The position numbers and the translations under genes are program-made. The notes beneath the pieces are model-generated. The model was not told the origin of the DNA and ran no database searches. It was given only the letters and a program-made list of their open reading frames with translations. Positions 106 through 39,759 of a stretch of DNA of 64,000 nucleotides are shown piece after piece. The stretch is from Bilabrum cf. latius (taxonomy: Eukaryota), in NCBI GenBank assembly GCA_965178125.1, contig OZ237738.1, positions 992,001-1,056,000 on the forward strand, in the 5' to 3' direction. Every line of letters begins with the position of its first letter. The stretch's first letter is position 1.

Positions 106-978
106 TCATAGAACGCGCAGAACAGCGATGCCATCATGACCTTTTTTTCCAACCAGCTGAATGCCGACGCTTTCTAGGCCCGGGTGAGACGCTGCGTGCT
201 CGTTGAACCTAGCAGCCCCAATCGCGTTCTGGTCCCCTGGTGAGGGGTCCATGACAGCACCCCCTCGAACGATGTTATCCGCAATTATGAGGCCCCCTTG
301 TCGCATCAGTGGCAGCAACAGATCCAGGTACTCGCAGTAGGATGCCTTGTCGGCATCCAAGAACGCGACGTCGAACGGAGCAGGTGCTTCCTTGGCCCCG
401 CGTCCGCAAGCTGCATTCATCTGGGCGAGCGACTCCGCCGCTTTTCCAACGCGAATTTCGCAAATATTTCCAAGGCATGCCCGATGCAAGTTTTGGCGTG
501 CAATATTGGCATAATTAGCATCAAGCTCCAGAGAAACGAGAGCTCGATCAGCCCGCGGGATCTGCTCTTCTGCTTCGAACGCGGCAGCAAGTTTGCTGTC
601 TTTCACGAGGCTTCGTCCAAGCCACATTGTGCTATATCCTCCAAGTGTACCAATTTCTAGGATTCTTTCGGCTTTCACCAGCCTGCAGAACATCATCAGT
701 AGCTTTCCTTGCGTGGGAGAAACGTCGTACTCCGGCAACCCAGCTTCTCTCGCAGATTTTAGGGTGCATTGCGCAGCATCGCTCCAATAATTGGTCAGTT
801 TATCAGCGGAATCGGATCTATACACGAACGTGGAGTCCAGGTACTCGTCGACCTTGGCAATAATCGGATCCTTCAACACTCTAAACCTTGGCTCAGCGCA
901 AAATCGCGCAATTGTTCCTCGTGACGAGGACATGCAATAGCCTATGTGATTATAGTATTTTATTGACTGCCGCATCAT
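106..978 (-). CDS. SAM-dependent O-methyltransferase (CCoAOMT/Methyltransf_3-like)
   Basis: Motifs VSPTQGKLL, RILEIGTLGGYST, FDVAFLDADK, GGLIIADN, GKKGHDGIA. Ends at TGA. The true start may be the ATG at 933. Confidence 0.9.
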   Translation of the reverse strand: MMRQSIKYYNHIGYCMSSSRGTIARFCAEPRFRVLKDPIIAKVDEYLDSTFVYRSDSADKLTNYWSDAAQCTLKSAREAGLPEYDVSPTQGKLLMMFCRLVKAERILEIGTLGGYSTMWLGRSLVKDSKLAAAFEAEEQIPRADRALVSLELDANYANIARQNLHRACLGNICEIRVGKAAESLAQMNAACGRGAKEAPAPFDVAFLDADKASYCEYLDLLLPLMRQGGLIIADNIVRGGAVMDPSPGDQNAIGAARFNEHAASHPGLESVGIQLVGKKGHDGIAVLRVL

Positions 979-1170
979 CGTGTTCGGCTTTGAGAGTGAA
1001 GGCAGGGCGTTTGAAATGAAGGAGCTGCAGTAAGTGCTCTTGTTCCGGATTCATGCAGGGCACCCGAGCGTATTCAGACAGTCGCTGCAGAGATCACATA
1101 CAGGGTGCTGTCGCTGTTCGGGGTGATGAGAACTATATTTATAGTATCAAGACAACGATGTGGAAGTATC

Positions 1171-4146
1171 ATGGGCAGACGTTACCTCAGTTGCTCTGGG
1201 GCAGCCCTGTTTCGAACTATGTCGACATCGGCTGGCTCAATGTCTCATACGGCGGTCATGCCAGCTGAGGTGGCAGCTGCTGTGCGTATAGGATGCAATC
1301 ATGCCATACAAAGGGCCGGACTTGGGCCGCAGTCGCGTGTAGTGGTCCTGGACGCTACAGTTGGGGGAGGTTCCCACGCGAAGGCAATCCTTGAATCGAA
1401 CCCTAATGCTGTTGTTCTAGGTGTGGACCGTGACCATGAAGTACTGGAGCAGGCATCCAACGCACTGAAAGAATTTCGAGGCCGTGTGCTCCTTGCCCAT
1501 GCCTCGTTCGCAACGATGCCCGAGGTGCTCGCAGCAGCCAAGCCAGCGTTGCAACAGATGGGTGCCTCTGAGATTGCCAGCTGCGAGGGCCTCGCGAGAC
1601 ACGTAGCAGCGAATGGTCCATTCGCCAGCAGCACCGCAACAACACCAGACCAGCCGCAGCAGCTGGCCGATGACCGCCTATCCGTACCGCTGGTCGGTGC
1701 CGTCCTCATGGATCTCGGCATCAACTCCGTGCACGTGGATGACGCATCCAGGGGGTTTTCGTACAGGAGAGACGGGCCGCTGGACATGAGATTTGACAGG
1801 TAGGCCGGCAAGCAGTCCTATTTCGATGCAGACCGCAACGCAGAGGGGGAGCCGCCGCCGAACGCCTTTCCGTACATTTTGGAGACGTTCCAGCACCAGT
1901 CGCGGGGCCAGGGGCCCTCCCAGCCAGAATCCAAAGGGTACCAGCAGCAGAGCATTCGCTTGTTTCAGCCGGGCGAGCCCATACCCGCACCGTTGGAGGG
2001 CTCGCCGTGGGTGTGGCAGCGGCCCATCGTGTTCACTGCCGCAGACCTCGTGTCCCGCCTGCCCGTCAGGATGCTCGCCAGCCTGTTCGATGAAATGGGG
2101 AACGAGCCCAGGGCCGAATTGTGCGCGAGCGCCATCGCGCACTGGAGGGGCGCGGGCCGTCACCGCAGGAAGATTCAGTCCACGCTGGAGCTCAGGTATG
2201 TGATCGACAGGGCGGTCAGCGCGCTGGAGGGCACGCTCCCCGACCACCTGCTGCGCAACAGGGGCAAGAGAAGGAAGCTGAAGATGGCCAAGACCGAGCA
2301 CTGGATCTCGGCCAGGGACAGACAGCGCACTTTGCAGGAGATGGAGAGATCAAAGCCGTGGAACCCAGCGGTGCTCGGCCGCTGCTTCCAGGCGCTCCGA
2401 TGTGCGGTCAACAACGAGATGGCGCACGTGCGAGATGGCATCGCCGTGGCTGGGTCGTTGCTGGCGCCGGGGGGCACTCTCGTGTCCCTTGCGTTCCAGC
2501 CCACCGAGGACCGAGCCCTCCGCAAGTTCGCCAGGGTACGATCCATGCGCGGCAGCGCGCAGCGGCTGGGTCTGGCAGACCTGCAGCAAGAGGCGGAGCG
2601 TCTGAGCACCTCGGTGAGCAATGCAGAGGATGCGCTTTCAGTCCCAATGCAAATTGCGGGCCCCGACAAGCGGGTGTCCGCGAGAGAAGGGGCGGGGGAA
2701 GGGCAGGACGAGGGAGTCGAGGCGACGAGACCTACTATCAAAGAGGTGCGGAAGAACCCCCGCGCCAGGAGCGCAAGGCTGCACGTGGTGCAGATTCACA
2801 GCCCGAGGGTTCCCTCCGCGTGGAAGGAGAGGCAGCAGATGGAGCTAGACTGGCTGCAGGGCCGCATGGAGGAGCTAGACGAAAGCACCGAGGAAAGCAG
2901 CCGCGCTGGCAGCGAGGGCGAATCGGATCGCGCGGGGGAATCGCGCCCACCTCGGGCATTCGCCGGCGCACACGACTGGAGCCAAGACGGGGACAGGGGC
3001 CTCGAGTTGCTGCAGCGCCTAGCAAGCGAATACCCTGAGGCTGCCGGCAGGTTGACCGGCCGCAAGGTCTTCTTCCCGTCCTGGGTGGAGATGGCCATGG
3101 TGAAGAGCGACAAGACCAAGCGCTGGCAGAGACGCATGCACAGGGCAGAGGTTCGGGAGGCCAAGCATGCTGCGGACGAGGCGCAGCGGAGGAAAGAGGT
3201 GGCGCAGGGGGTGGGCTTGGATGACTACGCCAGCGACGGTAGTGAGGTAAGCATTCGCTTCGAAGACAGGAAGAACTAGGGCCGAGACAGCCCAGAGCAG
3301 GAGGGCTGGGGCGACGCAGATGAGGCAGAGATTGCCGACAGGAGCGGCCTCGCGGACTAGACCATGAACGAATAGACTGCAGGAGGCGAAGAGAGTCGGC
3401 AAGAGCAGCGCATTGCCCTGCCCGGTGTCGAGGCAGGCAAGGGCGGCGTGAACATGGAAGCGCTGTCGGACATGCAGGGAATCAGGGCGAGCCGCCTGGC
3501 CTCCATGCAGGCAGACATGGTGCGGCAGGGCGTGCCTGTGCATGTGGATGCAGAAGCGCTGCAGGGCATGCAGGCGCTTCTAGACATGGAGCTGCAGAGC
3601 GGCAGGAGCCCCGTGGATCTGCAGAGGCAGCCCGTGGTGGCCCCCATGGATGCAGAGCAAGACAGCGGCGGCGTGTATACGGTGCAGGAGGAGGAGGAGG
3701 AGGAGGACGATGCGTTTAGCAAGGCGTTTGCTGGGGGTGGTCGTACTGGTTTGGGCGGCGAGGAGGACGACGTGAGTCCCGAGGAGCTGATTGCCATGGC
3801 GGAGCAGAGCAGGATGCGCGATGGAGAGGCCGGTGAGGTGGGTATGGATGGTGCAGTGGGTGAAGGTGAGGGTGATCTCGAGTGGGAGGGGGCCGAGGAA
3901 GGGGGCGTGTCGGACGGCAGCGACGTGGAGGGCAGCACGCTGGGCCACGAGGTGCGGACGGTGGAGCTGGAGCCTGGGCTATTCGAGGAGATGAAGCAGC
4001 GCGCTCTGGAGAGGGGCTTGTCACACGAAGAGGTTGGAGAGCTTTACTCTGGACAGGACGGCGGCCCTGTTGCCTTCGATTTGGACGCGATGGTCGACTC
4101 GAGCGATGACGGAGGGGAGGGGTTCAATCCGAATGGGAGGCAGTGA
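1171..4146 (+). CDS. rsmH: RsmH/MraW (METTL15-like) rRNA m4C methyltransferase with probable organellar transit peptide and long acidic C-terminal extension
   Basis: Motifs [61 protein letters not shown]-track pieces 1105-1803, 1879-3279 and 3448-4146 share one frame, separated only by TAG (1801, 3277, 3358, 3373). Ends at TGA. Start uncertain (1126 or 1171). Confidence 0.85.
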
Positions 4147-4276: not shown

Positions 4277-4996
4277 TCAATGGCACGCAGCGTCGGTGAC
4301 GCCAGCTGTTCCCGCAGAGTCCCCGATGGGCGAAAAAAAGAATACGCCTAGCGCCTCTCCGGCACACACGGCAAAGAAAAGACCCACGTTGAAGGCTGCG
4401 AGGAGCACAATGGTTCAGAAACAGCAGGCAAGTCTGCACAACGGAACGCGGAGGGGGGGGAGATGCAATTAGAGTGATGTCTTACTCATGGCAACAAGCA
4501 TGTTAATGAATGCAACTGCTGTAATAACAAAGTAGAGGAGGGCGTCGATCCCTCGCAAAGACCACACGAGGTACGTCGCCGGCCGCGCCATGCCGACCTG
4601 TCTCGCGGATCCACCGGCGGGCTTCACGGCCGACACCTCCCCAGAAGAAGGTGGCATTGAGACGTTCGCCTCAAGATCGTTTGATGCAGATGCATGGCTG
4701 CGCGGGGCTGTTGCTGGATTGCAGTTGCACGAGGAACCGGCACCAATCGAAGGCCCATCAAGCAAAGGCTGCACTCCTAGTTCAGCTGTCCCATCGCACC
4801 CACAGCCGCATGAGCCTGATTTTGTCATCCATGTCATGAAATGCCTCCTAACCCACACGAGAAACTGCCGGGCGACTCCGAACAGCATGATTGCGATTAA
4901 CGCACCGCAATATTGCCCGGGAGTTTTCGTGACCCAAGAATTGAAGAGGATCGTGGCCTCGATAGAATTGTAAAATGTCATCTACATCATCATCAT
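4277..4996 (-). CDS. Ctr/COPT copper transporter, 2 exons
   Basis: N-terminal MMMM(TAG)MTFY. The MLVAM|TFNVG motif is joined across a GT-AG intron at 4396-4485. GEALG (GxxxG) helix. C-terminal ..ACH then TGA. Confidence 0.88.
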
Positions 4997-5091
4997 GGCT
5001 GCAGGGGTGGCGCTGACAGGATCGAGGAGAGCAAATATAAACAAGAAATTCGCAAGCCTGAGTGCATCCCTGTGCCGCTGACGAGTGCACT

Positions 5092-6531
5092 TCAGCTGAC
5101 ATCTTTGCCCTCCATCGCAGCGCCCGAACCTGCCTTTGCAATGGCAGGCGGCAGGAAATCAGCAGGCCGAACGACTTCAGGCACTTTGGCGGCCTCGCAG
5201 ACCGAAGCTCCGAGCCTAGCATCCACCAGCCTCAGGTACATGGCCACTCCCACGGGCAGCGCACGGTCGTTGAAATCAAACGTCGTGGCGTGCAGCATGG
5301 GGTTCTCTCGCCCCTCCTCCTCCGTCCCAACGAACCAGTAGCAGCCAGGAATCTCCTTGGTGTAGAACGCAAAGTCCTCGCCGCCGAGCACGGGCAATCC
5401 ATCCGAAGATACGGAAGCGGCATCAGCACCAGTCAGGTCAACTACCGAACCTTCGCCGAGTACTTCGGCTGCAGCCTTCCTCGCGGCCTCCGCGGGCCCC
5501 TTGGCATTCACCAGGGCAGGGTAGAGGTCGGTGAAGCTGACCTCGGCCTCGCAGCCCCCGGCCAGTGCCGCCCCCTTTGCCACCTCCGTGACCCTCCGCA
5601 TGACCGTCTCCGTCACCTCGTCCCTCAGCGTGCGGATGGTCCCGCTGAGCTTCACCTCGTCCGGAAGAACGTTCCTCGCTTCGCCCCCGTGGACCGTGGC
5701 CACCGATACCACAGCGGAATCGAGGAAATGGACTGACCTGGAGACCACCTGCTGCAGCCCCACCACCACGTGCGCGGCAGCAAGCACCGCGTCGGCTCCG
5801 TCCCCCGCGGAGGGCTGGGAGGCGTGGCACCCCTTGCCCCGGACAACAATGTCAAGGTCGGTGACACGCGCCATGACCGGCCCGCTGGCCACGCGGATGG
5901 TGCCCAGCGGGAACTTGGGCCAGTTGTGGAAGCCGTACACCTCTGAGACGCCTTCGAGGCAGCCTTGCTCTACCATGGGCTTCGCACCGCCTCCGCGAGG
6001 ACCCCCTTCTTCGGCTGGCTGCCAAAGCAGCCGCACGACAGAGTCGCTAGGGATGCGGTCGCGGTGGGCGAGCAGAAGGGTGGTTGCTCCGAGCAACGTG
6101 GCCATGTGTCCGTCGTGCCCGCACATGTGAGCCGCACCGGGGCGACGGGAGCGATGAGGCAAGTGTGGACTGCACTCTGTCATGGGTAGAGCGTCAATAT
6201 CGGACCGGAGAGCGACAACTCGAAGCCCCTCGTCGTTCCGTGCAGCAAAATCGCCGTCGGCGCCGTCACCGGCTGCCGGCCCGCTTCCCCGCACATCAAC
6301 CACCAAGCCAGTCTCCGCCAGCGACCGAATATCTTTTTCGTCTACCCCAAGAGCGACTAGCTGCTCTCGGATCAGCGCGCTCGTATCCTTCTCCAAGAAG
6401 GCCGTCTCGGGCTGGCTGTGCAAGTGGTGTCGCACCTTCACAAGCGATTTGATAAGATCGGCAGTCAAAGCCGACTGCTTGACATCAAATGACGGTGCTG
6501 CGGCATCGCTACTCCCGCCAACGGCTGCCAT
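5092..6531 (-). CDS. M20D-family amidohydrolase (IAA-amino acid hydrolase/hippuricase-like)
   Basis: Motifs RHHLHSQPETAFLE, ALRSDIDALPM, MCGHDGHM, WQPAEEG, GKGCHAS, GGEDFAFY, LHATTFDFND. No introns seen. Ends at TGA. Confidence 0.92.
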   Translation of the reverse strand: MAAVGGSSDAAAPSFDVKQSALTADLIKSLVKVRHHLHSQPETAFLEKDTSALIREQLVALGVDEKDIRSLAETGLVVDVRGSGPAAGDGADGDFAARNDEGLRVVALRSDIDALPMTECSPHLPHRSRRPGAAHMCGHDGHMATLLGATTLLLAHRDRIPSDSVVRLLWQPAEEGGPRGGGAKPMVEQGCLEGVSEVYGFHNWPKFPLGTIRVASGPVMARVTDLDIVVRGKGCHASQPSAGDGADAVLAAAHVVVGLQQVVSRSVHFLDSAVVSVATVHGGEARNVLPDEVKLSGTIRTLRDEVTETVMRRVTEVAKGAALAGGCEAEVSFTDLYPALVNAKGPAEAARKAAAEVLGEGSVVDLTGADAASVSSDGLPVLGGEDFAFYTKEIPGCYWFVGTEEEGRENPMLHATTFDFNDRALPVGVAMYLRLVDARLGASVCEAAKVPEVVRPADFLPPAIAKAGSGAAMEGKDVS

Positions 6532-8022: not shown

Positions 8023-11000
8023 ATGCTGCAGGCTCGCACCCGGGCCTTCTCCAGCAAATCAACCAGGCCGGTACAAAGTTTATTGTATAATATTCTAAAT
8101 GCGGACGACCCCCGCGGTATTGACCTTTCTAAGGGCGAGATTAGCCAGCTCTTGCGATCACGAGGAGCGACTGCGTGGAGCGTGCTCGCGGCAGCCGACT
8201 AGATGAGGCAGCGCACCTCTGGCCCAGGGGTTAGTTACGTGGTAAATCGCAACATAAATTTCACGAACACTTGCGTGAAGAAATGTGGATTTTGTGCCTT
8301 TTCGCGGACTGGATTGAACAAGGAGGCTTATCACTTGCCTATTTCGAAAGTAGTGGCACGCGCAGAAGAAGCTCGTGACCTTGGGGCAACCGAAGTGTGC
8401 ATTCAAGCCGGGTTGCCGCCGGGAATGCCTGCGGATCTCTACTATCGAACTGCAGCCGCAGTGAAGGAGGCTTGTCCTGACATCCAGATCCACGGCTTCA
8501 GCCCTGAAGAGGTCCTCTATGCCTCCAAAATTGGGAAGCTAAGTATTCGGGAAGTTCTTCTCGCGCTGAAGGCAGCAGGTGTAACGTCACTGCCAGGCAC
8601 TAGCGCTGAAGTTCTTGTCCCAGAGGTGCGGGAGCGTCTAGCTGCAGCACGCATCAGTGTGCAGCAGTGGACTGAAGTCGTGCGCACCGCCCATGATGTG
8701 GGCCTCCCGACGACATCCACCGTAATGTACGGGCACTGTGAGCACCCTGAAGACCTGGCAGACCACTTGATTCACCTGCGGGATCTCCAGAGGGCGTCGA
8801 CAGGCTCCATCGGAGGCATCGCCACCGATGGTGCCGTGGGCATCACCGAATTCGTCCCGCTGAGCTTTGTCGCAGCAGACGCCCCCATGGTGAAGCGCAG
8901 GCACGACCACATCATGAATGAGCTCTAGACCGAGCTCGGCGACAGCCCTGTCACGCCGGGCGGTTCTGCACCTGGCAGTGCGGGTGGGACGAATGGGCGC
9001 GTCCCAGTTCCTCTTCGGTCTGGCCCCTCAGGGGAGCAGGTCCTGCTGCTGCACGCGGTGGCTCGGCTGGCGCTCAACAGGGACATTCCCAACATGCAGG
9101 CATCGTGGGTCAAGGAAGGCCCCCGCATGGCCCAGCTGCTGCTGCAAGCCGGCTGCAACGACCTTGGCGGCACGCTCATCAACGAGTCCATCTCGACTGC
9201 AGCGGGGGCCAAGCATGGCCAGCTCATGAAGCCCTCTCAAATCCGCGCCCTAGTGCGTGGGCTAAACCCGACCATGGCGTGGGGCGATGGACAAGCCAGC
9301 ATGGGCGAATCCAGTGGCCAGTTGGAGAGCGAAGCAGAGGAACCACCACCAAGCAGTGGGTACGATGCAGCCACGGATGCTGACGGTGCTGAAGAGCTGA
9401 GGTATCCATGGCAACGAGACACGGGCTACAAGCAGCTGAAGAAGTTCTCTTCCCACGCTACTGACGTGGAGGCAGCTCGCGAAGCCGCAGTAGAGCCACT
9501 GGAGGCTGTCAGCACGGAGCAATCAGCGGTGGAGCAAAGGTTTGGCTCCTTCTTCGCTCTTGCTGCCTCGTCCGAGCACAGGTTTAGAGACAAGATCCCT
9601 GGCAGGGCGACCGGCAGCTCTGCACGGTCGCGGCGGTCATCCGCACAGTCAGTGGCTGCGCAGCAGCGCGGCATCTGGACAAGGGCTGCTGCCGATGCAA
9701 GAGTTGGGCGTGGCTTTGCAACACCGAGGCGAGGCCTGCACTGCACCGATGCTGCCGGGTAGGCCTTTGAGAAAACCGTTACGTTCTCGCCTAGCTATAC
9801 GCTTGTACCAACCTATGAGTGTTTTAACAGGTGCGCTTATTGCAACTTCCGGCAGAATTCGAACGAAGCCAAAGCCAAGCGGGCACAGCCGGCCAGCGGC
9901 GACGACGCTGCCCTGGCTCAGGTTGACACTGCCCAGTGGGGCTGGATGCAGGACGGCGATGCGCGAGTACGCCTGAATGCGCTTCGACGGCCAGAGGTGG
10001 AGCGGGCCTACGGCGGCTCTCGGATCAGAGAGGCCCTTGTGCTGTCCGGAGAGGTGTCCCCTGGGAGCTGGAGGAGGCCACTCTTCCTCCAGAGGGTCGA
10101 AGGCATCTGCCACGCCGCCCTAGAGGCGGGTTTGCTACCGCACACGAATGCAGGGCCACTCTCAGAGGAAGAGATGCGAACTCTGAGGAGGACCAACGTC
10201 AGCATGGGGCTGATGCTGGAGCAGCTCACTACCAAGCTAGCAGCTGGCGTGCACAGGTTCGCTCCTTCCAAGAAAGATCCTGGTCAACGGCTGGAGCAGC
10301 TGCAGCAGGCAGGACGCTTGCGGGTCCCGTTCACAACCGGCATCCTTTGCGGCATTGGTGAGAACGAAGGCGATCGCATAGAGTCGATGGAGGCCATTGC
10401 GCGCACGGATGAGGACTTTGGGGGGCACATCCAGGAAGTGATCGTGCAGCCGCACGCGACCGGTGAGTCCCAGCTGGACGCCAGCCTTGGCACGTTTTCG
10501 CACGATGATTTGGTGGCCACGGTCAGCGCGGCCAAGCGCCTGCTCCCGCCGCACATCGCGGTGTAGGTACCACCCAACCTAGCCCTCGCCAACTAGGCTG
10601 TGGAAGCACGCAGCAGCAGCATCTCCGATGGATTGGACCGTGATAGTGCATAGCACGAGGAGGCAGCACACGACGTTGCTGCCTCTTTGTCTCGATCTGG
10701 CGAGGGCGCCAGGTTGCTTGACTGCATCGGGGCAGGAGCCACTGACCTCGGTGGCATCTCTCCGCTCGACGAGGTGAATCCATCCCACGCCTTCCCGCTC
10801 GTGTCGGGTCTGCAGGCGTTTCTAGCATCGCACGGTGTTGCCCTGCTGCCGCGGCTTCCTGTGCACGACGAGTACATTCGGGACGATGCTGCTTTGGCAA
10901 GGTGGGTCGATGCATCGCTGCACGATGCCGTGCGGCAACACAGGGCGGCAGTGCAGCAAGAGAGGGCTGCCTTGCTGAACAACGCCTCGGAGCAGCGGCA

Positions 11001-11112
11001 GCAGCGCTAGCGCCCGTCTCTATCTTTGGCTGGGACTCAAGATGTCGGTGGATAGCCCTATGGGCTGCCAGTGGATGTGACCGCAGCCTCTGAGTCCGAG
11101 CACCGGCTCTGA
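8023..11112 (+). CDS. Bifunctional FO (8-HDF) synthase: N-terminal CofH radical-SAM domain fused to C-terminal CofG radical-SAM domain
   Basis: CofH: VSYVVNRNINFTNTCVKKCGFCAF, PGTSAEVL, TTSTVMYGH, ITEFVPLSFV, NMQASWVKEG, GCNDLGGTLINESIS. CofG: VTFSPSYTLVPTYECFNRCAYCNFR, PHTNAG, NVSMGLMLE, PFTTGILCGIGE, HIQEVIVQP, (TAG)VPPNL, DLGGISPLDEVNP. One frame with 8 TAGs (8200, 8926, 9760, 10564, 10594, 10651, 11008, 11053). Ends at TGA. Confidence 0.9.
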
Positions 11113-16204: not shown

Positions 16205-16462
16205 GCGGCAGCCTGATGAGGAAAGCTACCAAGGCACGCTGTGTGCTGGTATGGCAGACCATGACTAGATTAGGCATCAAGACAAAATGCATTGTTTGGC
16301 TTGACTAGACAGACACCACCAAGGTTTATGCAAAAAACAGATCACATCACGTGGATCATATCCCGAGAACGAACAGTCACTTGGCAACGCACGCATCACA
16401 CGGGGCGGCTTTCGTTCTGCCCGTTCTCGGGCCGCACAGGCCCGCGCACGGCGATCGTTCGT

Positions 16463-18661
16463 ATGGCAGCCTCAGGAGCGGGATCATCACTCGCTATTCC
16501 AGATGTCAGTGCGACATCCCTGCGAGAAGTGCTGAACCAAGGTGAGGCGGCCTCATCCCTGTTTCGCAAGGTTGGCGAGGATGACACCATCAAGGTCGCT
16601 TTGCGGATCCGTCCGCTGAACAAGTTGGAGATCGAAAAAAGCAAAGGTAAACCAGAACCGTTCATGAAGGCAACAAGTAGGAAGCAGGTAGAGGTACAAG
16701 ATCGGCACGGCGGGGAGCGATATTTTGGATTCGACCGCGTGATGGACACAAGCACAAGCCAGGATCACGTGTATGAAGAGGTGGGAAGGCCAATGGTTGA
16801 CGCGCTTTTGCAAGGTGAGTTTGCTAGGTGCATGTATGCGCGGCAGTGAGCAAATGGTTCGTGCACCCTTACCGCAGCGTTCCGCGCTAGTCGCTTGCAT
16901 CGCAGGTATTAACGCATGCATCATGGCATACGGTCAGACAGGGTCTGGCAAAACATTCACGGTCAGCGGTACTGCGGATGCTCCAGGGTTAGCCCCGAGG
17001 TTGACGCGAGATCTGTTCAAGCGGCTGCATGCCTCGACGCGGCCGTTCGATGTGCGCCTGGGCGCCGTGGAGATATTCTAGAACCGAGTCTACGACTTAT
17101 TTGCGGTATCCAAAGAACCACTGGGTGTATCGTACGACGAAGTGAGCGGCGTGTCTGTCGGCGGGGCCCGCATGACCCCCGTTTACTCTGGCGGCAAGGC
17201 CGAGGCCATGCTGGAGGAGGCAGCCACGAATCGGACCGTGTACGCCACGAAGATGAACCACGTGTCATCTCGATCGCATGCAATCTATGTCATGAATGTG
17301 GCCGTAAAGTCAGCTGCGGGCGCAGTCCGTAGAGGTGAGCATGGCCTGTCTAGAGCAGCTGCTTGCTCGAACAGTGTTGCCGCCCCTGTGCTATTGCAGC
17401 CGTCCGCTCAATCGTCCAACCCTAGACTTAGTATGTGCCGCATTTTGCAGGGTAGCTGTACATTGTGGATCTGGCCGGATCGGAGAGCGTCAGCAAGACG
17501 GGAGCCGAGGGGGATCGCCTGGAGGAGGCCAAGTTCATCAACGTGAGCCTCCTGTATCTGAGCAGGGTCATTCGGGCCCTGGTGGAGAAGAGCAAGCACG
17601 TCCCGTACAGGGACTCTTGCCTCACGATGCTCCTCCGTAACTGCATCGGGGGAAACGCCCGCACTGTTCTTCTAGTCAACGCGAGCCCCAGCCCGTGGAA
17701 CTACGCCGAAAGCATGTCTGCCATCCGGTTCGGGCAGAATGCTTCAAAGATCAAGAATACCGCACTGAAGAACGAGTAGCTGGCGGACGAGGAGCTGGAG
17801 GGTGCCCTGGCCAGTTTGACCACCAAGGTGCACTCGAACCAGACGCTCCTGGTCCAGTGTGAGGCCGCCATGCGGAACTTCAAGGCATTGTTCCGGGAGC
17901 TGGGCATGTCGCCGGAGGAGATCGAAATGCTGGCAGACGGGGCGGACGAGGAGGTGGAGGCGGCCAGGCAGAGGGCCGAGTACGCGAGCGAGCTGGCGAG
18001 GCAGAAGACTCTGGATGACGAGGCCATCAGCAGCAGCGGGGCAGTGCCGAGGGCCGGTGGGAGGGGCGACGAGGCTGCAGCATCAGCAGCAGCAGCTAGT
18101 GCTGGAAGCAAAGGGTATGGCGCCGGTGGAGCGGCTGCAAGTGGCTCCGGGGCGGCGTCTGGCGCGGGAGATGCGGGGGGTGCGGTGGGCGCGGATCCCG
18201 GGCACGATGGGGCATGGGGTCTCGAGGCCACGGGGGCGGTGGGGGCTGCCGATGGCCGGGAGCGGGAGCGGTCTGGATCTCAGGGCAGCGAGGGCAGTGT
18301 GGGCCGGACGCTGTCGAGCAGGAACGGGGCCAGGCTGCAGGAGCTCATTGATGACCCCATGGAGGGGGGAAGCCCCCCCAGGCTATCCGGGGGCGGGTCC
18401 GGGGTGCCAGCCGGTGGCATCGTGCCAGGTCGGGGGCGTGCGGGGGCCGCCGTCTCGTCTGCCGCCGGGGCCGGGGCGGGCGGTGGTGCGTCACCAGCAC
18501 GTCCTCCTCGAGTGCACCGCGGTGGTGGGAGGGCGGCACTACCCCAGGTGGGGGGAGGGATGGACGGGGTGGTGGAGGACATGCGGGGGGATGGAGACGG
18601 TGGCGCTGCTGAGGACCTGCCGAGCTTTGCTGCCCCCCTGCTGACGAGACAAACCAGTTGA
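16463..18661 (+). CDS. Kinesin motor protein, 3 exons
   Basis: Motifs KVALRIRP, FGFDRV, AYGQTGSGKTFT, MNHVSSRSHAI, VDLAGSE, HVPYRDSCLT. Introns at 16815-16905 and 17335-17450. TAG at 17079, 17453 and 17777. Confidence 0.9.
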
Positions 18662-19878: not shown

Positions 19879-21088
19879 ATGGCAAGCAGTGGCGGAGGCG
19901 ATAATCTTGGCAGGTCACGGTCCACCCGCTCGATGGTGCTTAAGAGACGGCTAGCGATGCTAGGCTTCAAGGGCGTCGGTGAGTGTTGGGTGTGCGTGCG
20001 CAGCAAGAGCGATTCGGCGGCAGATACTACCTGTCGATGCGAAACATCGCAGGCCGTGATGTGGGCATGCACCCGCTGCCGCGTCCGTTGTCGACCTCTG
20101 TGTTGCATTCACACTTCTTTACGTTGTGGCGCAGGCAAGTCCTCAATCACAAGACGATTCGTAGAATAGACTTTTGATGATACGTACGAGCCAACCATTC
20201 TTGGTACCTACAGACGGGAGTTCACCGTGCGTGGAGCGAAAGTCGAGGCTGAAATTGTTGATACTGCAGGCATAGATGAGAGCAGCCGCATCCCAAAGGA
20301 TGCCGCAGTCGGCGTTCACGGCTATGTGCTAGTGTACGACGTTACCAACCGGGTCAGCTTTGAGCAGGTGAGCCTTGGTGCGTGCAAATGGAGTGATCAT
20401 GTGATAGCGTTGCTGGAACAGTGGTGGCGACTTGCAGCACAAGCAGTCAGCGTACTGCTAGAAACATGTTTGCAATTGTGCACGTACAGCATACCATGCA
20501 GTGGTTCTTGGCGGTGGAAGGCCTCGCCACAGCTCTCCGCTGGCACTGCCTGCAGCAGCCTTGCCTCCGGTCCCGCCTCCGGCATCGGCCCGGCAGTTCG
20601 ACTGTGCCGGTTTTGCTCCACATTAGGCCCAAGTATCCGCTCGTAGACCACACCATCTCAAGGGAACTACCACAGCATGACAGCCGCGGTTTACTTTCGG
20701 CCTGAGCTCCCCGCCACTTTCTCCACGCGCGCAGGTATCACATATCAACGACATGTTGCTCGACACGGTCGGAGCAGACGCCGTCCCACGGGTGCTCGTA
20801 GCGAATAAAGCAGACCTTGAGGCAGACGTTGCCGTGGGAAAGGCAGAGGGGCAGCGGCTGGCAACTGAGCTGGGCTGCCCCTTCCTGTACATGTCGGCGA
20901 GGACCGATGGCGATGTCAGCCTCGACAGCGTCTTTCAGACCCTGCTGCTTGAAGTTGATGGAGAAAACGGAAGTGGGGTCCTACCGGACGTCTCCAAGGA
21001 GGCGGCGTAGCCCCCTTCGCAAGGTGGCTCTGCCGGTGCTAACAAGGCTAGCTCCGGCTCCGGCGGAGGTATCTGCATGATTCTGTGA
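19879..21088 (+). CDS. RHEB: Rheb-like Ras-family small GTPase, 3 exons
   Basis: Motifs MLGFKGVG|KSS, YEPTI, DTAG, GVHGYVLVY, VANKADL, MSAR. Introns at 19979-20134 and 20368-20734. TAG at 20167 and 21008. C-terminal CaaX CMIL then TGA. Confidence 0.88.
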
Positions 21089-21633: not shown

Positions 21634-24600
21634 TCACAGTCGCGTTTCAAACGAGTAGAAGCCACTCAGAGTGCGCACTTTCACGAAGTCCCCCTCGGCC
21701 TCCGCACTCAGCACCCCGGGTGAGGCACCCGGCTGGAATGCCCCATGCGACCAGATGATGTTGCCCATGTCTGTGACCACCATATCATCGGGGATGCCCG
21801 ACCCCGCCTCGGGTCGAGGGACGTACACGACTCCCGTGCTTGTGGGCGGGATCGTCACGCGCACGCTCACCGCACCGCTGGCTGCCGCGCCGCTGGTCCC
21901 ATTACCGCGCTCCCAATAGGCCATCACGCTGCCGCGAGACGAGGCCAGCGTGACCCTGGCCCCCAGCACATTCTGCTGCTTCCCAGTCGACAGGGCTGCC
22001 TCGGGCTTCACTTCCACCACGGCCCAGCCAGCCGAGGTGGGGTCGCTGCACGCACCCTCTGCCTCTGCTGACTTCAAGCACCGCGGCATGTCCAGGCCCA
22101 CCACGTGCTTCCGGAGGAAACTGGCGATGTTGGTCTGGTAGTGGTGCGAACGGGATGACTCGGCCACCCACTGGCGGGTCGTGTCACCGTTCCAAGACTC
22201 CCACAGAGAGGTGGAGGGCTCGAACGCGTTGAACACCTGGTACCCATACCCAGGGTACTTGGTGCGGAGCAGCGCCTGTACCGCCGCCCCCGTGCGATTG
22301 GACCACACCAGCGCCTCGAAGATGTAGCTCGCGCCAAGGAAGCCCACCGTCACGCCGTTCTGCAGCAGGTCGGCAGCGAGGGAGTCGGCGACCGAGCCGC
22401 GGGTGGACTCGGGAACGGCGCCCAGCCACAGTGCTATGGCCTGAGCAGTCTGCGAGCCCACGCTGCAGGTACCGTTGGAAGCATGCCAGAACGTGCTCGT
22501 GAACTCAGCCAGAGCATCTCGGGCCGCCAGCTGGAAGGCTTGCTCCTCTGCGGTCTTGCCCAGGGCTGCAGACAGCTCCGCCGCGTACCGCAGGTCTCGA
22601 ATGAAGGATGCAGACGCCGTGACCTCGCACGGAGTGTGTGCGAGGCTCTGATGGTCCCCCCACAGGCAGTAGATGTGTGCCATCCCACTGGCCTTCACGC
22701 TGGCTTGGAGCGTGCCCATGTACTGCAGCAGGAGGTCGTAGTGCTGGGCGACGGCCCCCGTGTCGTTCGTGTACCTCCACGCGTTCCACAGGATGGTGGG
22801 GAACACGGTGTTCCAGGAAGGGTCCATGCTCGCCCCGGAGCAAGTGCTCGGGTCGTTCCAGTCCGACATGCCGTCCCTGTCCGGGTCCGACATGGGTATG
22901 CTATGCGGTATGGTGCCATCGGACCAGCATGCCACGTCGTGGATTTGCTCCAGGTACTGGCTGAACAGAGCACCCGTGTCAAAGTCGAAGAACTCTTGCT
23001 CGGAGGCGATGGCGGCGTCCCCGGTCCACCCGCCCCGCTCCCCGCGCCCTGCGGCCCCGCTGGGAATCCCCATGAGCCCGCTGGCCTCTGTCCACCAGGA
23101 GTTGTTGTAGATGCGCTGCAGGGTCGGGTGGGCGATCCGCACGTCGGACTACTCGGCTGCGTCAGTCCTGACGTTGATCCCGAGGAGGGTGCTGCGGTTG
23201 ATCTGCGCCGCGATCGCAGCCGGCAGCGGTGGGGACGCGCTGAGCTCGACGTACCGGAACCCGTGGAAGGAGAACCTGGTTTCGTACGAGGCAGGCGCGG
23301 ACTCCCCTGCGAGTCCAGTCTGGTACACGTCGATGGGGCGCGCCCAGAAGAGATTCCCAGTATATGCGCTGCCGTCATACTGGGCAACCACGTCTGTGGA
23401 CTTACCGTTGACCACCTGCTTTAGGGGCGGGTGTCCCAGCACCTCTGTGTGACTCAACGTGATGTTGGTGCCCGCCGGGATCCCCGCGGGCAGAGCCAGC
23501 CTCACGTGTCCAGAGAACTCCTAGCCGAAATCGAAGGTCCATCGCGGAGGATTCGCGGGGGCCGAGGCACCTGGCTTGGCAAGCACCCGTCGCACGGTAA
23601 GCGGCTGCATCTCACGCACTGCTCGAATGGGCTGCTGCATCTGCGACTGTAACCACGGCTGGCCCGGTGACCCGGGAACGCCGCCGGGAACTGGCACTGC
23701 CGGGGCCCAGGCCCGCCCGGGCAAAGGCTTGAAGTCCGTGGTGGCCCAGCCCGGCTGTTCCCAGTCCGCGATGTAGTACTCGCCGTTGTAGGCCGACTCA
23801 TACGAGAGCGGGCTCTGCCCATGCTCCCAGCTCCCGTCCGTCACCACCGCCAGAACCGGTACCTAGCTCCCGTTGGACGCGTGTGCTGCCAGACGCAGGA
23901 TGGCCTGTCTCGTGCCCGTGTTGTTGGGGGCTGCGCGCGCTTCCCCGCAGAAGCCCTGTCCCACCCACAGGCCAAGAGCGTGCTTGCCCGGTGTCAGAGT
24001 GGAGGGGTCCAACGAGTACGTGGCGTAGGTTCGATTCCGGTTGAACCGGGTCCAAGTCACATCCAGTTGCCTGTCCCCCACCCTGGCCCCATCCAGGTAC
24101 AGCTCGTAGTACTGGCACGCCCCCACGAATATGGACACTCTGCCGATGTCCAGGCCGGCAGGCACGTCGAACTCCTTGCGAAGGAGACCCCCGCTGCAGT
24201 TCCCGAACCCAAGGGCGGTGTGCTCCACCATGGCAGGCGCCGTGCACGCCCCCGCATGCACCCAGCGGGCCGGCGCCCACTCGCTGTGGGATAGCAGCCC
24301 AGTGGTGAAATGCGCAGGGTCTGATGTGTACGCTGTTGCCGCTGCGAATCCGCCCACTGGATGCTGGTTGGGCTGCAGGGCCGGGGGGGCGGCGCCTCGA
24401 GGAAGAGAACCTGAAGGAGCCACGGGGCTACCCTGCCACACCGTCACTGTCCAGTAGTACGACTGGTCGGAAGACAGCGGGAGGTTGCCGTCGGGCCGAA
24501 ACACCGGATTGCTTGAGCCGTTCACGATGCCCGATGTCCAGACAAGCGATCCGGTCGAGTTGCTCATGACGCGGACCTGAAACGCGGTCTGTGCGTCTTG

Positions 24601-25158
24601 GGGCCGGAACCGGTCCAAGGGGTGCAACAAAGGCACTATCCACGAAAACATGGGCCTGAGGGTGTCTATTCCAAGCGCTGGAGCTGGCAGGTGCTACAAT
24701 TTGAGACCGGAGGGTTTCTGGACGGGCTGCGGAGGGAGCGGATCTTGGCCAAGAGGCTTATCACAAACAACCGATACCGTCAGATTCTTGCGAATTCCAT
24801 TGCACGGGTACACGGGGACCGCACTCGAAAGACCGTCCTTGTTCGAGCAGCTGCATGCCGGATCCCGTATCGCGTCGCATGAGCACTGCACCGAGCACTC
24901 TGCTGATCCCAAGCACAGGAGGCGCACCGGCGCGACCAGATCAACGGGACACTACTGCGTGATTACAGCATCTGGACACTTGGATCCCGGGCTAAATGCC
25001 CCGAACTAGGCATTTAGCACCCTTGATACGACCTGGCCCGATGGGCACTTCAAATCAGTCGTTTGCCCTTCGCTGACAAAGTCACAGAGAGAGGCTCCGG
25101 CAACAGCAGCATACGATACTAGAAGAAATATACACGCGAGACATACTCTAGCATCCAT
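21634..25158 (-). CDS. Secreted GH78 alpha-L-rhamnosidase-like glycosidase with N-terminal SUEL-type lectin-like domain
   Basis: Signal peptide; Cys-rich LKCPSGQVVSRVLNA(TAG)FG; LGIDTLRPMFSW; FDFG(TAG)EFSG; RFSFHGFRYVE; ERGGWTGDA; WGDH; TSLWESW; SRSHH. One frame with 6 TAGs. Ends at TGA. Confidence 0.88.
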
Positions 25159-25430
25159 GCTAGATGACCCTGGAGTTGCTCGGTTGCCGTTGACAGGTCC
25201 TGAATGTTGCGTGCCAATATCAAAACTCAGTCTGGACCCGTCGCGGACACTTCCATCGAGAACCGGTGCATTCTTGTGCATTTATTCGTTCCATTATCGG
25301 TGAGATTTGCAAGTTTGATCACAGATACGAAGAGAACTAGGTCAATATTGTGTTCGGTTACTCTATGTAGGAAAAATCTTTAAGAACGCTAGTGCAACTG
25401 CTTCTACGCAGGGGTTCTACTGCAGCCGAA

Positions 25431-28181
25431 ATGAGCGGGAAGACCAGCTATGTCGACAAACAGCTTGAAGACATCATGAAGAATCCCGCATAGGGTTTGG
25501 TCTACCGTGGCAAGGCCAAGAAGGTTCCGTCCACTCTGGTGAGCCGCAGACGAATTGCCGCTGAGACGCAATCCCGCCGGCATGCCACATGGAAGCCCAT
25601 GAAATCATCGCGAGCCAGCAGGCGAGAAGAGCGCAAGCGCAAAGCTGCCGCTCGGCGGCAGCGATGGATGCTCGAGGGTCTGCCACCTGGCGTGTCGGAG
25701 TCCACGGCGCAGTACATCCAGGGCATGCTCGGGGGTGCAAAGATTGGCTCCGTCGTGCCAGTATCTTCGCACAAAGCCATGGCAAAGCAACCGGCCTCCC
25801 CTGCGATGTCATCTGCAAGTTCAGGGCGGCTGGGAAGCACGGTATCCACCGCCTCCATCCGAGCGTCCAGCGCATCCTCTGCTGATGGCAGCGAAGCAGA
25901 CGCAGGCTCTGCCCTTGCAGACGGACTCGAGTTCATGAGCATCGGACGCTTGTCCATGCGGGACCAGTCCGGCTCGGTGTCTGATTTCAGCGGCCCCAGC
26001 GACACTGAGAGCGCCGGGAGCAGCTCTCCTGTAGCGATGGGGCACTCGCGGGGCCTAGTCGAAAACGAAGTCCCTGCCGGTGGTGTCTCTGCCGCTGCTG
26101 TTGCTTGTGCGACACCAACGAAAGAAGGCATGCGTGACCAAGCCGCTCCAGCGGCACAGCGCGTCCAAGAAGGTGCCCGGGCGCGGCACGCTGCGGCAAT
26201 TGCGAGCCGAGGCAGCCGCGTGCGCAAGAGCCGAGAGAGCGCCGACAAGAGCCGCCTCAGGCAGCAGGCCGAGAAAGAGGCGATGCAGGCCGAGATTGCC
26301 GATCTCCGGACTCAGCTGGCTGCGAGCAAGGCCACTTGTACCCAGCTCGAGATCAGGAACGGAGCCCTCGCGGGACACGTCCACACCCTATCGCAGCTGC
26401 TGCAGCGAGCGATCGGTAGCAGCGCGGCAGGCGGGGTGTACGGGCCTGGAACCACAGCTGCAGCTTTTCACGCGATGCAGGCCGCTGGCAGCAGCATCCA
26501 GTCGGAGTCTTCCTCTTGCGCTGGAGTGCCGGCCGCACCCGCGCCGGGCCAGAAGCGCCGGCGGGACTCGGAAGCCGGCAGAGTCGAGCTTGCGAACGAT
26601 ATTATGCTAGCAGCTGCAGCCCAAGGTAGGCCCACCTACCGTTCCATGGCAGGTTCTTCGAGCCAGCGTGCGATGGAAGATGGGTCAGACTGCGCTTTGT
26701 GCACGGCCCCGCTGCGGATCAGGGCACCCTCGGACAGCTCGCTGGCGAGCTCCCTGCCCCACCCCAGCGATGTCTTCGCAGCCGATGGCCAAGCCAAGCT
26801 AGAAACAGATGCAGCAGGCTGGTCTGTGCCCGGTAGTCCGTCCTCCTCCATCCTTGCTGCGGCCATGGTGTGCGCAGAGAGCAGCACCAGCTCCAGCTCC
26901 AGCCCCAGCAGTCGATTCTGCACGGGCCTGTCCCCGATCTCCGACCTGCCGCTTGCACACGGTGCTGCATCGCCTGCACCGTTCTGTGGCCGCGACGACT
27001 CCGCGAATAGCCCGGCACTGGGACGCACAGGATAGGAGTCGCCGTCCTGGATGCGATTTGGGAGGGACGAGGCATTCGGGCATGGGCACGGGGCAGGCTC
27101 CGAGGCAGGTAGGACGAGCACGATGCATCCATGGGAGCCCGCTTGGCTAGGCTCCAGGGGAGGCGATTGCACGGCGTCTTTTGAGCCGACCGAGGCTGGC
27201 GGGCAGCTGGGCTGCTCAAGTGCCTTTGCTGCTGGGCTCGATGGAACTGGGTCCGTGCCGGCAGGGTCACCGAGTGCAGCCATGTCACCTATTGGATCGG
27301 TTATGCAAGGTGTGGAGCAGGGGGGGCTGAATGAATACGTTAGGGGCGTTGGTGGGGATGAAGAGGACAACACCGTCGCGAAGTGGTCCGAAGTAGCGGG
27401 TGACGACGACGAAGCGCCACGCGCTCCCAAGCGACGCCGCATCGCTGGTGGAGTTGGAGTTGCATCGCACCACTTGGGACTGGTGCTGGCATGTGTGGCG
27501 TGCTGCTTGTCCGTGCTGCACGGCCCGCAGCAGATGGGGCACGTCTCTCTGGCAGTTGGGGCAGGCAGCGCCCCAGCTCAGGCCTTTCGACCCATTGCTC
27601 AAGGGGGCACCAGTGGGGGCCAGGGTCGCCCCGGTGCGGGTGACTTCCGGCTGCTCAGCGTCGAGGTCAATGCGGAGGCCGATGGTGCTGACATTGGGCC
27701 GCAGTTCGTGTCCGAGGCGGGCCTCCACTCCCGGCACCCGAGCCTTGTTGACCCATCGGGTGCCGGCGGGGCTCCCATGGTGGAGTGGCAGTGGCAGGGG
27801 CTCATGCAGGCCCACGGCCTGACTTGGAGCTTTCACCCAGTGGCCGCTGTGGAGCGGATCGTCGGCAATTCCCTCGTTGGGGATGGTGCCGTCGGACAAA
27901 CCTGGGGGCAGCATGCCTCCGGTGGAGAGTCTTCGGCCGAGACGTGGTACGTGGTTCGGTTGGCTGCAGCGGTGATGGCCGTGCTAGTCTGCTTTGGAGA
28001 GGTGTGTGAGGGAGCGTGCAAGGATGCGTGTAGGGGTGCTATAGGTGCGTGGGGCTTGGCGCGTCGTGCGTGCGGGTTCTGCCAAGGAGCCTGCATGGAG
28101 CTGTGCGGCTGCCAGGGCGAGCACAGCTCGGCCGCCAGCCCATCGCGCGGGGCGAGGAGGAGACGCTTGCCGAGCTTTTGA
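25431..28181 (+). CDS. bZIP transcription factor with C-terminal hydrophobic (putative transmembrane) segments
   Basis: Basic region RVRKSRESADKSRLRQ plus a Leu heptad zipper (~26215-26400). Hydrophobic stretches LGLVLACVACCLSVL and WYVVRLAAAVMAVLVCF. TAG at 25491 and 27033. Ends at TGA. Confidence 0.7.
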
Positions 28182-28415
28182 GTATGCACTGGTCACAGAA
28201 ATTAGTTTCAACAGTCACGCAGAACCATATTGCAACGCGACCAAGCAATGATAGCGAAGCCGGAACCGGCGCCGGCGTGATGAGGTGTCCTGTCGGGTGG
28301 GTCTGGTGAGTTGCCCACTTGGCGAACGATGGACCGCAATGATACGCAGGGGCAGGCGATCGCGCGCGAGACAGGTGACTAGCCTCCTCAACGTATTCCA
28401 TTCTCTCCCGAATAC

Positions 28416-30401: not shown

Positions 30402-30588
30402 GTGTACTGCAGGTCGTGGCATGAACCTGCATAATGCAAATTCAAATCGATCGAATTTGAGCTGTACAGGTGCCTTACCAGATCCAAAGTTTGCACCGAC
30501 GAATCTGTATTTTCGTTCGGGTTGCGAGTACCTTCGTCCGAAAACTGGCAAAGTCATTCTTCACCTAGTTTCGTGTCAACATTGAGCA

Positions 30589-38432: not shown

Positions 38433-39632
38433 ATGTCGGGCCGAATTGATTTGAGAGTATTCTTAGAGCAGCTTACACGGGGAGAGGCGTTGGATTAGGC
38501 GCAGGCATCCGAAGTTTGCGGCGCCATTGCGGATGGCAAGGCGGATCCAATCCAAGTAGCAGCACTTCTGGCCCTCATATAGAGCGTCAAAGCAAATGCC
38601 GCAACTGTAGCAGGTTTTGCGGAAGCGATGCGAGCTCGATGCAATCACGTTAGCCTGGGTGGTGGCCGACCAGTCGTGGACATTGTAGGCACTGGCGGCG
38701 ATGGACACAACACGGTCAACATCAGCACATCTGCCGCGATCGTTGCAGCCAGCTGTGGTGCCACAGTGGCAAAGCATGGAAGCGTTAGCGTTTCATCGCG
38801 ATCAGGATCAGCCGACGTGTTAAAGGCGCTGGGAATCCGCATGCTCGCTCCGCCTGACATTGCTCCGTGCGTGGAGCGTTGCGGAATGGCCTTTATGTTT
38901 GCCCCAAAGTTTCATCCGGCAATGCGCCACGTGGTGCCGATCCGAAAATCGCTCAAGATCCGAACGATATTCAACATCCTTGGCCCCCTGTTGAACCCGG
39001 CGGGCGCGCAGCGCCTCATGCTCGGCGTGTACCACCCAGACCTGCTGCCGATCTACGGCAAAGCGCTCGAAGCACTGGGCGTAGAGCACGCCGTGGTGGT
39101 GCACTGCGGCTCCTTGGACGAGCTTGCACCCATAGGGACTGCCTCTGTGCTTGAGGTGAAGAGGGGTCAGCCCTCGGTGCAGCGCGAGGTGGACATGCTG
39201 TCCATGGGGGTCCCCGCCTGCACCATCAAGGACCTCGAGGGGGGCGAGCCCGAGGAAAACGCTGCCATCATCCGGAAGGTGCTGGCAGGCAATGCGGAGG
39301 GTAGGGAACAACACATCGCGAACACCATCGCGATCAACGCGGGCGCTGCACTATACGTGGCTGGCCTGTGCCCCGGCATCAAGGAGGGCACTGCCATGGC
39401 CCTAGAATCCATCAAGGCGGGCAAGCCAGCTGGCACCCTGGAGGCGTGGGCCAAAGCAACCTAGGATCTAGAAGATGCCACGCTGGCCAAAGAAGCATCA
39501 GCCAAGGGAGATGGCGTGGCAGCCGCGGGTGCGGCGGCGGGGGGCGCCGGGTCCGGTGAGGCCCCTGCCAAGCGACCCAGGACCGGAGAGGGGGCCGCGA
39601 CTGGGGCAGGGGCAGGAAGCAAACCCTCGTGA
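38433..39632 (+). CDS. trpD: Anthranilate phosphoribosyltransferase
   Basis: Motifs DIVGTGGDGHNTVNIST, VAKHGS..SSRSGSADVL, FAPKFHPAMRHV, RTIFNILGPLLNP, LDE, NAGAAL. The N-terminal helical domain is recovered through two TAGs; a third TAG lies at 39462. Ends at TGA. Confidence 0.93.
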
Positions 39633-39759
39633 CTTGATCTCATGATGATTTGTGATGTTAACAATTGAGAGTAAACTCGAAAAGTCGGAATGGCTGTGAT
39701 TGATGCTCATGCACGGCAATGACCAACAGCAGCAAAGAGGACGCATCCTCCCCACTTGC

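Follow-up and report, generated by a model that had tools for sequence, protein, structure and literature searches.

Eukaryotes use the deazaflavin FO (7,8-didemethyl-8-hydroxy-5-deazariboflavin, also called 8-HDF) as the antenna of class II cyclobutane pyrimidine dimer photolyases, (6-4) photolyases, and animal-like cryptochromes (PMC9178010, PMC6125616; statements drawn from articles cited by PMC number apply to the excerpts of them that were available). Photoreactivation in Chlamydomonas requires the bifunctional FO synthase Phr1, the cryptochrome CraCRY uses an 8-HDF antenna (PMC6125616), and 8-HDF synthesis has been described in algae and mosses (PMC13769073). FO is also the precursor of F420, for which the excerpts of PMC8498797 report no evidence in eukaryotes. 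The eukaryotic enzyme is termed “FbiC” or “bifunctional FO synthase” with its domain order unstated (PMC8498797 Fig. 11 legend, PMC10949242, PMC8859854), and the excerpts of PMC8859854, PMC9178010, PMC8498797, PMC6125616, PMC10949242, and PMC13769073 contain no statement about the order of domains in eukaryotes. The gene described here lies at positions 8023-11112 on the forward strand of a 64,000-nucleotide stretch of DNA from the protist Bilabrum cf. latius (the window) and encodes a CofH domain followed by a CofG domain. With a probability of about 0.85, it is a native nuclear gene for a bifunctional FO synthase of a eukaryotic CofH-CofG type, read with UAG as glutamine, whose product likely serves as a photolyase or cryptochrome antenna.

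The gene is a single frame of 1029 codons with an ATG start and a TGA stop at 11110-11112. It contains eight in-frame TAG codons (codons 60, 302, 580, 848, 858, 877, 996, and 1011, at window positions 8200, 8926, 9760, 10564, 10594, 10651, 11008, and 11053) and neither TAA nor TGA before the terminal TGA. Translation with TAG as glutamine yields a protein of 1029 amino acids (aa), the query of all searches below (P0001). The initial annotation of this DNA had placed one frame of about 1029 aa at the same coordinates, correctly. It had also described four fragments under the standard code; the frame actually breaks into nine pieces, four of which are open reading frames (ORFs) of at least 60 aa and are probably what was counted. 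All conserved blocks lie in the single frame, and an intron is therefore unnecessary, as had been proposed. The query-specific loops could still hold short in-frame introns.

The identity of both halves is established by family models. Pfam finds Radical_SAM in two stretches of the protein, together with CofH_C. Among NCBIfam models, CofH TIGR03551 (5-amino-6-(D-ribitylamino)uracil--L-tyrosine 4-hydroxyphenyl transferase) matches the N-terminal half at 393.9 bits (cut-off 374.1), most strongly over aa 36-292, whereas CofG NF004884 (329.6 bits, cut-off 209) and TIGR03550 (251.5 bits, cut-off 213.35) match the C-terminal half. The E-values for the two-domain match, 4.9e-118 and 1.8e-98, are far beyond chance, and the sister families MqnC (291.8 bits versus 428.1) and MqnE (255.8 versus 434.55) remain below their cut-offs. 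The placement of these matches agrees with BLAST using the two halves of the query, and the order first recorded for this gene, CofH then CofG, is therefore real.

The CofH radical S-adenosylmethionine (SAM) domain spans aa 34-414 (8122-9264, forward strand, as for all parts of the gene; TIGR03551, PF04055, and PF19288), and the CofG radical-SAM domain spans aa 583-995 (9769-11007; NF004884 and TIGR03550). Each holds one of the two CxxxCxxC motifs that had been noticed in the sequence. The first [4Fe-4S]/SAM cluster motif, C84-x3-C88-x2-C91 (8272-8295), is identical in at least 90% of 35 homologues, and the second, C600-x3-C604-x2-C607 (9820-9843), is invariant in a 30-sequence alignment. The CofG start quoted in the initial annotation maps to aa 586-610. 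In total, 205 query positions are identical in at least 90% of the 35 homologues, both cysteine triads among them. An AlphaFold2 (AF2) model built from the 30-sequence alignment has a mean predicted local distance difference test score (pLDDT) of 80.2 and a predicted template-modelling score of 0.57, and displays two confident radical-SAM barrels. Confidence extends over CofH at about aa 20-415 (apart from loops near 96-98 and 296-324, with pLDDT mostly above 85 in the domain), the tail that follows it, and CofG at about aa 583-995. The closest folds in the PDB are MqnE (target-normalised TM score 0.83-0.88), HydE, BioB, HydG, PylB, and ThiH, and a sequence search of the PDB returned MqnE as the only match.

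Codon 848 (10564-10566) is informative about how TAG is read. It falls within an invariant Q-x-P-P-N-L motif of CofG, where the aligned residue is Gln in 35 of 35 homologues, and the block Q848-V-P-P-N-L is intact when this TAG is read as Gln. Fragments from a close relative allow a further comparison. P0242 (window 8023-8925, aa 1-301, 98% identity) and P0122 (9805-10593, aa 595-857, 94% identity) come from the same 34,339-bp contig, and they carry ordinary Gln at the window's TAG codons 60 (8200-8202) and 848, respectively. Their ends coincide exactly with TAG 302 and TAG 858 of the window. With Gln at TAG sites and fragments cut at TAG sites, the relative seems to share the code. Furthermore, 66 in-frame TAG codons occur in 16 Pfam-supported ORFs of the window (12,038 codons; for example, 1126-4146(+), 21634-25281(-), and 47371-50961(-)), of which 14 end in TGA and two in TAA (RCC1 and SMC).

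The invariant Gln at 848, the relative's Gln at 60 and 848, and the general presence of in-frame TAG together indicate that this genome reads TAG as glutamine, in line with the initial view that a non-standard reading of stop codons is required. UGA is the stop, with UAA probably a rare second one. Scans of the 64-kb window for tRNA and Rfam families returned no matches, and no suppressor tRNA was seen. The TAG codons of a window TrpD gene do not bear on the code: in comparison with PDB homologues, codons 22 and 50 correspond to residues that vary, and codon 344 falls where the alignments end. If TAG instead terminated, the locus would be either a pseudogene or a pair of neighboring genes, the first (CofH) closing at a TAG and the second (CofG) being translated on its own. 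Eight in-frame TAG codons, one of them (580) just before the CofG core, would fit this view, as would the standard-code gene calls of the relative, which end at codons 302 and 858. However, the first Met after codon 580 is M642, beyond the CofG cluster motif, and the 205 conserved positions are intact on either side of each TAG. With the Gln evidence added, termination at TAG is extremely unlikely.

The window is eukaryotic nuclear DNA, with genes for kinesin, a Ras-like GTPase, RCC1, UCH, SHQ1, SMC, and PHD-finger proteins, some of them with introns. Both domains of the query have prokaryotic ancestry, which would be expected of a bacterial contaminant or a very recent transfer, but the gene shares its in-frame TAG codons with its neighbors, its GC content of 0.60-0.62 matches that of the window (about 0.6), it sits between eukaryotic genes about 150 bp from the one upstream, and its nearest relatives are eukaryotic fusions. 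The probability that it is anything other than a resident nuclear gene on these grounds is next to negligible.

Domain order was compared among homologues from a search of about 5.8 billion proteins, of which the 120 best matches of 565-1801 aa were analysed, with order assigned by BLAST using the two halves of the query. CofH precedes CofG (H-G) in 37 matches and follows it (G-H) in 83. The H-G set includes all the closest matches among the 120 listed, and 31 of the 120 are collinear with the query over 80-94% of its length at 33-47% identity. Twelve H-G proteins can be tied to eukaryotes by name or by a eukaryote-only source: Effrenium voratum, Symbiodinium sp. CCMP2592, S. natans, Durusdinium trenchii, Phaeothamnion confervicola, five EukProt entries, and two MMETSP entries. 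None of the 37 has a prokaryote name, and the four organism-named G-H proteins among the 120 are all bacterial. A second set, drawn from 1.84 billion proteins clustered at 50% identity and limited to the 150 best cluster representatives, comprises 12 H-G, 40 G-H, 76 CofH-like only, 13 CofG-like only, and 8 double CofH-like proteins, plus 1 short fragment. Double CofH-like proteins among the distant matches include P0378, P0382, P0385, P0387, P0392, P0394, and P0491. A family scan of one of them, P0378, identifies it as an MqnC/MqnE-type double enzyme of the futalosine pathway and not an FO synthase.

Prokaryotic gene neighborhoods show the opposite arrangement. Exact peptide patterns of the CofH half located 45 prokaryotic loci in genome contigs (L001-L045, none cyanobacterial), and H-to-G order was not seen in any of them. 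In 44, cofH is immediately preceded by a CofG-like sequence, either adjacent or fused to it, and in 39 of those 44 this sequence best matches the CofG half of P0033, a G-H protein. The upstream sequence of locus L038 is too short to show order. Within the H-G group, the end of the CofH half and the junction to CofG are conserved throughout (FGSF...RF, then VT[FY]SPS.T.VPT.EC). A survey of domain order, named beforehand in the initial annotation as the place where its proposal could fail, thus found CofH-CofG to be the arrangement of the closest homologues, 12 of them eukaryotic. The layout is usual among eukaryotic relatives and no new invention, and the eukaryotic H-G group is already present in public protein sets, partly annotated as “FO synthase” or “cofH”.

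Separate phylogenies of the two domains, which had also been suggested, place the query within this group. They are quick, midpoint-rooted trees whose rows are the query's own best matches, so the sampling is biased toward its relatives. The CofH half was analysed in a tree of 116 rows and in a second tree of 134 rows that takes in all stand-alone representatives of the 50% clusters that are no longer than 480 aa and have a high-scoring segment pair of at least 300 aa. All 41 H-G rows fall on one side of a branch in both trees, with support of 93 and 90 in the Shimodaira-Hasegawa-like approximate likelihood ratio test (SH-aLRT), and the query groups with P0002 and P0003 (99 and 98). Sister to the H-G rows is a set of 33 rows (96), united with them at 100, that holds stand-alone CofH of Nitrososphaerota, Chloroflexota, and Myxococcota, nameless proteins, and two G-H proteins. 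In a CofG tree of 103 rows, a split with SH-aLRT 99 separates FbiC-type CofG, along with one Nitrososphaera CofG, from the H-G and stand-alone CofG sequences. The stand-alone set forms one clade (98) that contains all 19 named cyanobacterial rows included. The H-G rows form an unresolved grade in the free CofG tree; when 36 of them (including a protein of the chlorarachniophyte Amorphochlora) are held together, the log-likelihood is 38.3 higher, and the approximately unbiased (AU) test does not reject a single clade (p-AU 0.892). Each half is thus consistent with a single ancestral fusion common to the group, and the query is an ordinary member of it, although its branch is rather long.

These results bear on the proposal, made when the gene was first noticed, that this protist's lineage fused CofH and CofG independently and so acquired the CofH-CofG order by itself. 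Such an event would account for an order reversed relative to FbiC and missing from all 45 prokaryotic loci, and for a linker and inserts that are lineage-specific. It is highly unlikely nonetheless: the same order is found in 37 of the 120 best matches, which include the closest relatives, and in 12 of the 150 cluster representatives, the query is nested among H-G proteins in both domain trees, the AU test allows a single CofG clade, and the tail and domain junction are conserved group-wide. The order is the family norm among protists, so this gene does not point to a fusion event of its own.

The two halves of the H-G proteins resemble different stand-alone enzymes. For the CofG half, the 120 best stand-alone matches have 39-47% identity, and 21 of them bear organism names: 20 cyanobacteria and Amorphochlora. 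Together with the 99-supported split from the FbiC type, this bears out the early impression of a cyanobacterial-type CofG. The 120 best stand-alone matches of the CofH half have 50-56% identity (near-identical P0242 set aside), and the four named ones, a “Deltaproteobacteria bacterium” and three truncated as “Candida...”, include no cyanobacterium. This hints that the CofH half may not be of cyanobacterial origin, in a comparison set that held no CofH with a cyanobacterial name. NF005609 was tried as a marker of cyanobacterial CofH and abandoned, as CofH of Nitrosopumilus (449.8 bits) and of Chloroflexota also exceeds its cut-off of 426.

The tail behind the CofH core offers a further marker. 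The motif FG[ST][FYW] followed by R[FA], counted when it lies within 130 residues of the core, follows CofH in 35 of 38 H-G proteins, in 140 of 186 stand-alone CofH proteins, and in 12 of 116 G-H proteins. It occurs in 5 of 74 stand-alone cluster representatives; four of the five are in the larger CofH tree, all in the sister group of H-G. The H-G proteins have the tail of about 60 residues (aa 459-525) in common with a subset of stand-alone CofH from Nitrososphaerota, Chloroflexota, and Myxococcota, and it is also seen in P0244, P0262, P0313, and L001-L005. It is missing in the short CofH examples examined and lies outside the coverage of NF005609. A bolder proposal, which is tentative and on balance doubtful, is that eukaryotic CofH-CofG enzymes as a whole, the query among them, may stem from a chimeric fusion independent of bacterial FbiC, with a cyanobacterial CofG placed behind a “long-tailed” CofH that is closest, among labelled sequences, to those of Nitrososphaerota, Chloroflexota, and Myxococcota and not to those of cyanobacteria, and that this fusion persists here in a possibly non-photosynthetic protist with UAG as Gln. 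If true, this would imply deazaflavin-dependent photobiology outside algae.

By homology, the N-terminal CofH half is predicted to couple, at its [4Fe-4S]/SAM site, a tyrosine-derived 4-hydroxybenzyl unit with 5-amino-6-ribitylaminouracil, and the second radical-SAM site, in the C-terminal CofG half, would cyclise and oxidise the intermediate to FO (PMC8498797). The halves are connected via the conserved CofH tail and then a disordered linker. This fusion is common to dinoflagellate, ochrophyte, and other protist homologues, with a cyanobacterial-type CofG paired with the long-tailed CofH. The FO produced would most likely be an antenna chromophore of photolyases or cryptochromes, not an F420 precursor.

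Genes related to these uses were sought by a Pfam scan of 100 window ORFs (33 ORFs and 67 of 113 further ones; the 46 left out, at 25361-30553 and 39501-43150, lie under long low-complexity ORFs that were themselves scanned). None of the 100 matched cofC, cofD, or cofE. Some bacterial G-H matches (P0114 and P0119) do carry PF01983, presumably the CofC family, and FO could in principle feed biosynthesis of F420 as a redox cofactor, with no supply to a photolyase antenna. This use is very unlikely in light of the missing cofC, cofD, and cofE in the scanned parts of the window, the lack of evidence for eukaryotic F420 synthesis in the excerpts of PMC8498797, and the known eukaryotic role as a photolyase or cryptochrome antenna (PMC6125616, PMC9178010). 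The same 100 ORFs include no plastid or photosynthesis genes, which is weak evidence from a single window, and the window TrpD has no N-terminal extension. Both observations give only hints about heterotrophy.

Several points weigh against reading the gene as an antenna-supplying FO synthase of a eukaryotic H-G family. That reading is a prediction from the gene sequence. No photolyase or cryptochrome was found among the 100 scanned ORFs, which leaves FO without a visible user. Two equivalog models score the query under their cut-offs: FbiC NF006687 (551.7 versus 1018 bits) and CofH NF005609 (376.1 versus 426). Twenty-five of the 37 H-G matches are nameless and assumed to be eukaryotic, and the SH-aLRT support of 90-93 for H-G monophyly comes from quick trees and is not decisive. 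The query also has long branches in the trees (0.57 for CofH and 0.81 for CofG), and its sequence contains long disordered inserts. Finally, Phr1 of Chlamydomonas reinhardtii, reportedly identified as a bifunctional FO synthase by Petersen and Ronan in 2010, is likened to the query by its described function.

The remaining parts of the protein are variable to different degrees. An N-terminal extension (aa 1-33, 8023-8121) is basic (5 Arg plus Lys, 3 Asp plus Glu) and rich in Ser and Thr. Its highest 11-residue Kyte-Doolittle mean is 0.85, and it contains no signal-peptide-like hydrophobic stretch by this measure. P0242 has the same beginning. A targeting role is possible. Query-specific segments defined by alignment (aa 296-326, 415-458, 859-890, and 990-1029) coincide with AF2 disorder, which is found at aa 308-324, 417-454, 528-580, 857-871, and 999-1029. 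The first is a disordered loop within CofH, with pLDDT below 50 at aa 308-324. The second is an acidic low-complexity insert (aa 415-458, 9265-9396) that is occupied in fewer than 30% of the 35 homologues and has pLDDT below 50 at aa 417-454. A third relative fragment, P0397 (window 9013-9441, aa 331-473), aligns with the query at 91% identity without gaps, with the insert open and more diverged; the insert therefore resembles relaxed coding sequence and not an intron.

Behind the insert, the conserved CofH tail (aa 459-525, 9397-9597) includes R460, R465, and Y469, then F507-G-S-F...R520 in the alignment, and mean pLDDT per 10-residue block is 82-95 over aa 461-520. The linker that follows (aa 526-582, 9598-9768) is disordered, rich in Arg, Ser, and Ala, and variable in length and sequence among homologues; its pLDDT is below 50 at aa 528-580, and it holds TAG codon 580. 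The CofG domain, folded in the AF2 model and grouped with cyanobacterial CofG, has query-specific loops at aa 618-638 and 859-890. The C-terminal tail (aa 996-1029, 11008-11112) is unconserved, without counterpart in 31-34 of the 35 homologues, and has pLDDT below 50; it contains TAG codons 996 and 1011 before the TGA.

Elsewhere in the window, the kinesin motor is split over three ORFs (16328-18661(+)) and the Ras-like GTPase over two (19879-21085(+), with a gap at about 20375-20759). This genome therefore contains introns, even though most window genes are single ORFs. A family-78-type alpha-L-rhamnosidase at 21637-25281(-) combines bacterial domain types with an N-terminal SUEL/rhamnose-binding lectin domain and has six in-frame TAG codons. 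Long ORFs rich in Ala, Ser, Gly, and Arg, with in-frame TAG and no Pfam family, lie at 25365-28178(+), 28818-30398(+), and 39763-43107(-). Further genes include an O-methyltransferase (109-1050(-)), a Ctr copper transporter (4472-5158(-)), a dual-specificity phosphatase-like piece (43168-43731(-)), and the N-terminal exon of the SMC gene (50961-51650(-)). An AT-rich island at 56001-58000 (GC 0.448 versus about 0.6 elsewhere) separates an SDR gene from a PF09778 gene, and its two scanned ORFs have no Pfam match.

The main outcome at this locus is a correction: the gene stands as real and intact, but its domain order is the protist norm. It also offers clean internal evidence for TAG as glutamine, from an invariant Gln in a catalytic domain and the Gln codons of a relative. 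If the host is truly heterotrophic, the presence of an FO synthase predicts 8-HDF-using photolyases or cryptochromes there.

Among known systems, the closest in architecture are five named protist proteins with the same domain order: the Effrenium voratum “FO synthase” (P0018), “cofH” of Symbiodinium sp. CCMP2592 (P0029) and of S. natans (P0043), and proteins of Durusdinium trenchii (P0049) and Phaeothamnion confervicola (P0025). Four of them are collinear with the query over 66-93% of its length at 40-44% identity, and that of P. confervicola over 36% at 50% identity. Cluster motifs, the CofH tail motif, and the CofG start are as in the query, and all five belong to the same clade in both domain trees. 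The query differs in length (1029 aa versus 592-988 aa), with extra disordered inserts, and in the eight TAG codons for Gln in its coding sequence. Its nearest relatives, P0002 and P0003, are 45-47% identical overall, and P0003 reaches 62% over the 348 columns kept in the CofH alignment. Chlamydomonas reinhardtii Phr1 is likewise a nuclear-encoded, single-polypeptide FO synthase of a eukaryote and serves as the experimental model for 8-HDF supply in photoreactivation (PMC6125616, PMC10949242).

Cyanobacteria and archaea, unlike this protist, encode CofG and CofH as separate genes. The CofG half of the query is 39-47% identical to cyanobacterial CofG, with which it groups in the tree, and for the CofH half the identity is 52-56% with stand-alone CofH proteins bearing the same tail motif. 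FbiC (NF006687, bifunctional CofGH) of Actinobacteria and other bacteria carries CofG and CofH homologues in one chain and performs the same overall reaction, but with its domains in the opposite order, CofG-CofH. FbiC of S. coelicolor has been co-expressed with an 8-HDF-binding photolyase (PMC9178010, PMC6125616). As first stated for this locus, the CofG-like domain of FbiC comes first: query aa 21-290 correspond to positions 478-735 of the 849-position FbiC model, in the C-terminal half of FbiC, and the available excerpts of PMC8498797 agree. Across the 99-supported split, the CofG half of the query is only 28-38% identical to those of G-H matches. By sequence comparison, the query would act like FbiC yet is not FbiC, from which it is set apart by domain order and equivalog score. 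The eukaryotic FO synthases that excerpts of the literature call “FbiC” thus have a distinct architecture, with a cyanobacterial-type CofG and the opposite order, a distinction that matters for annotation and for heterologous expression.

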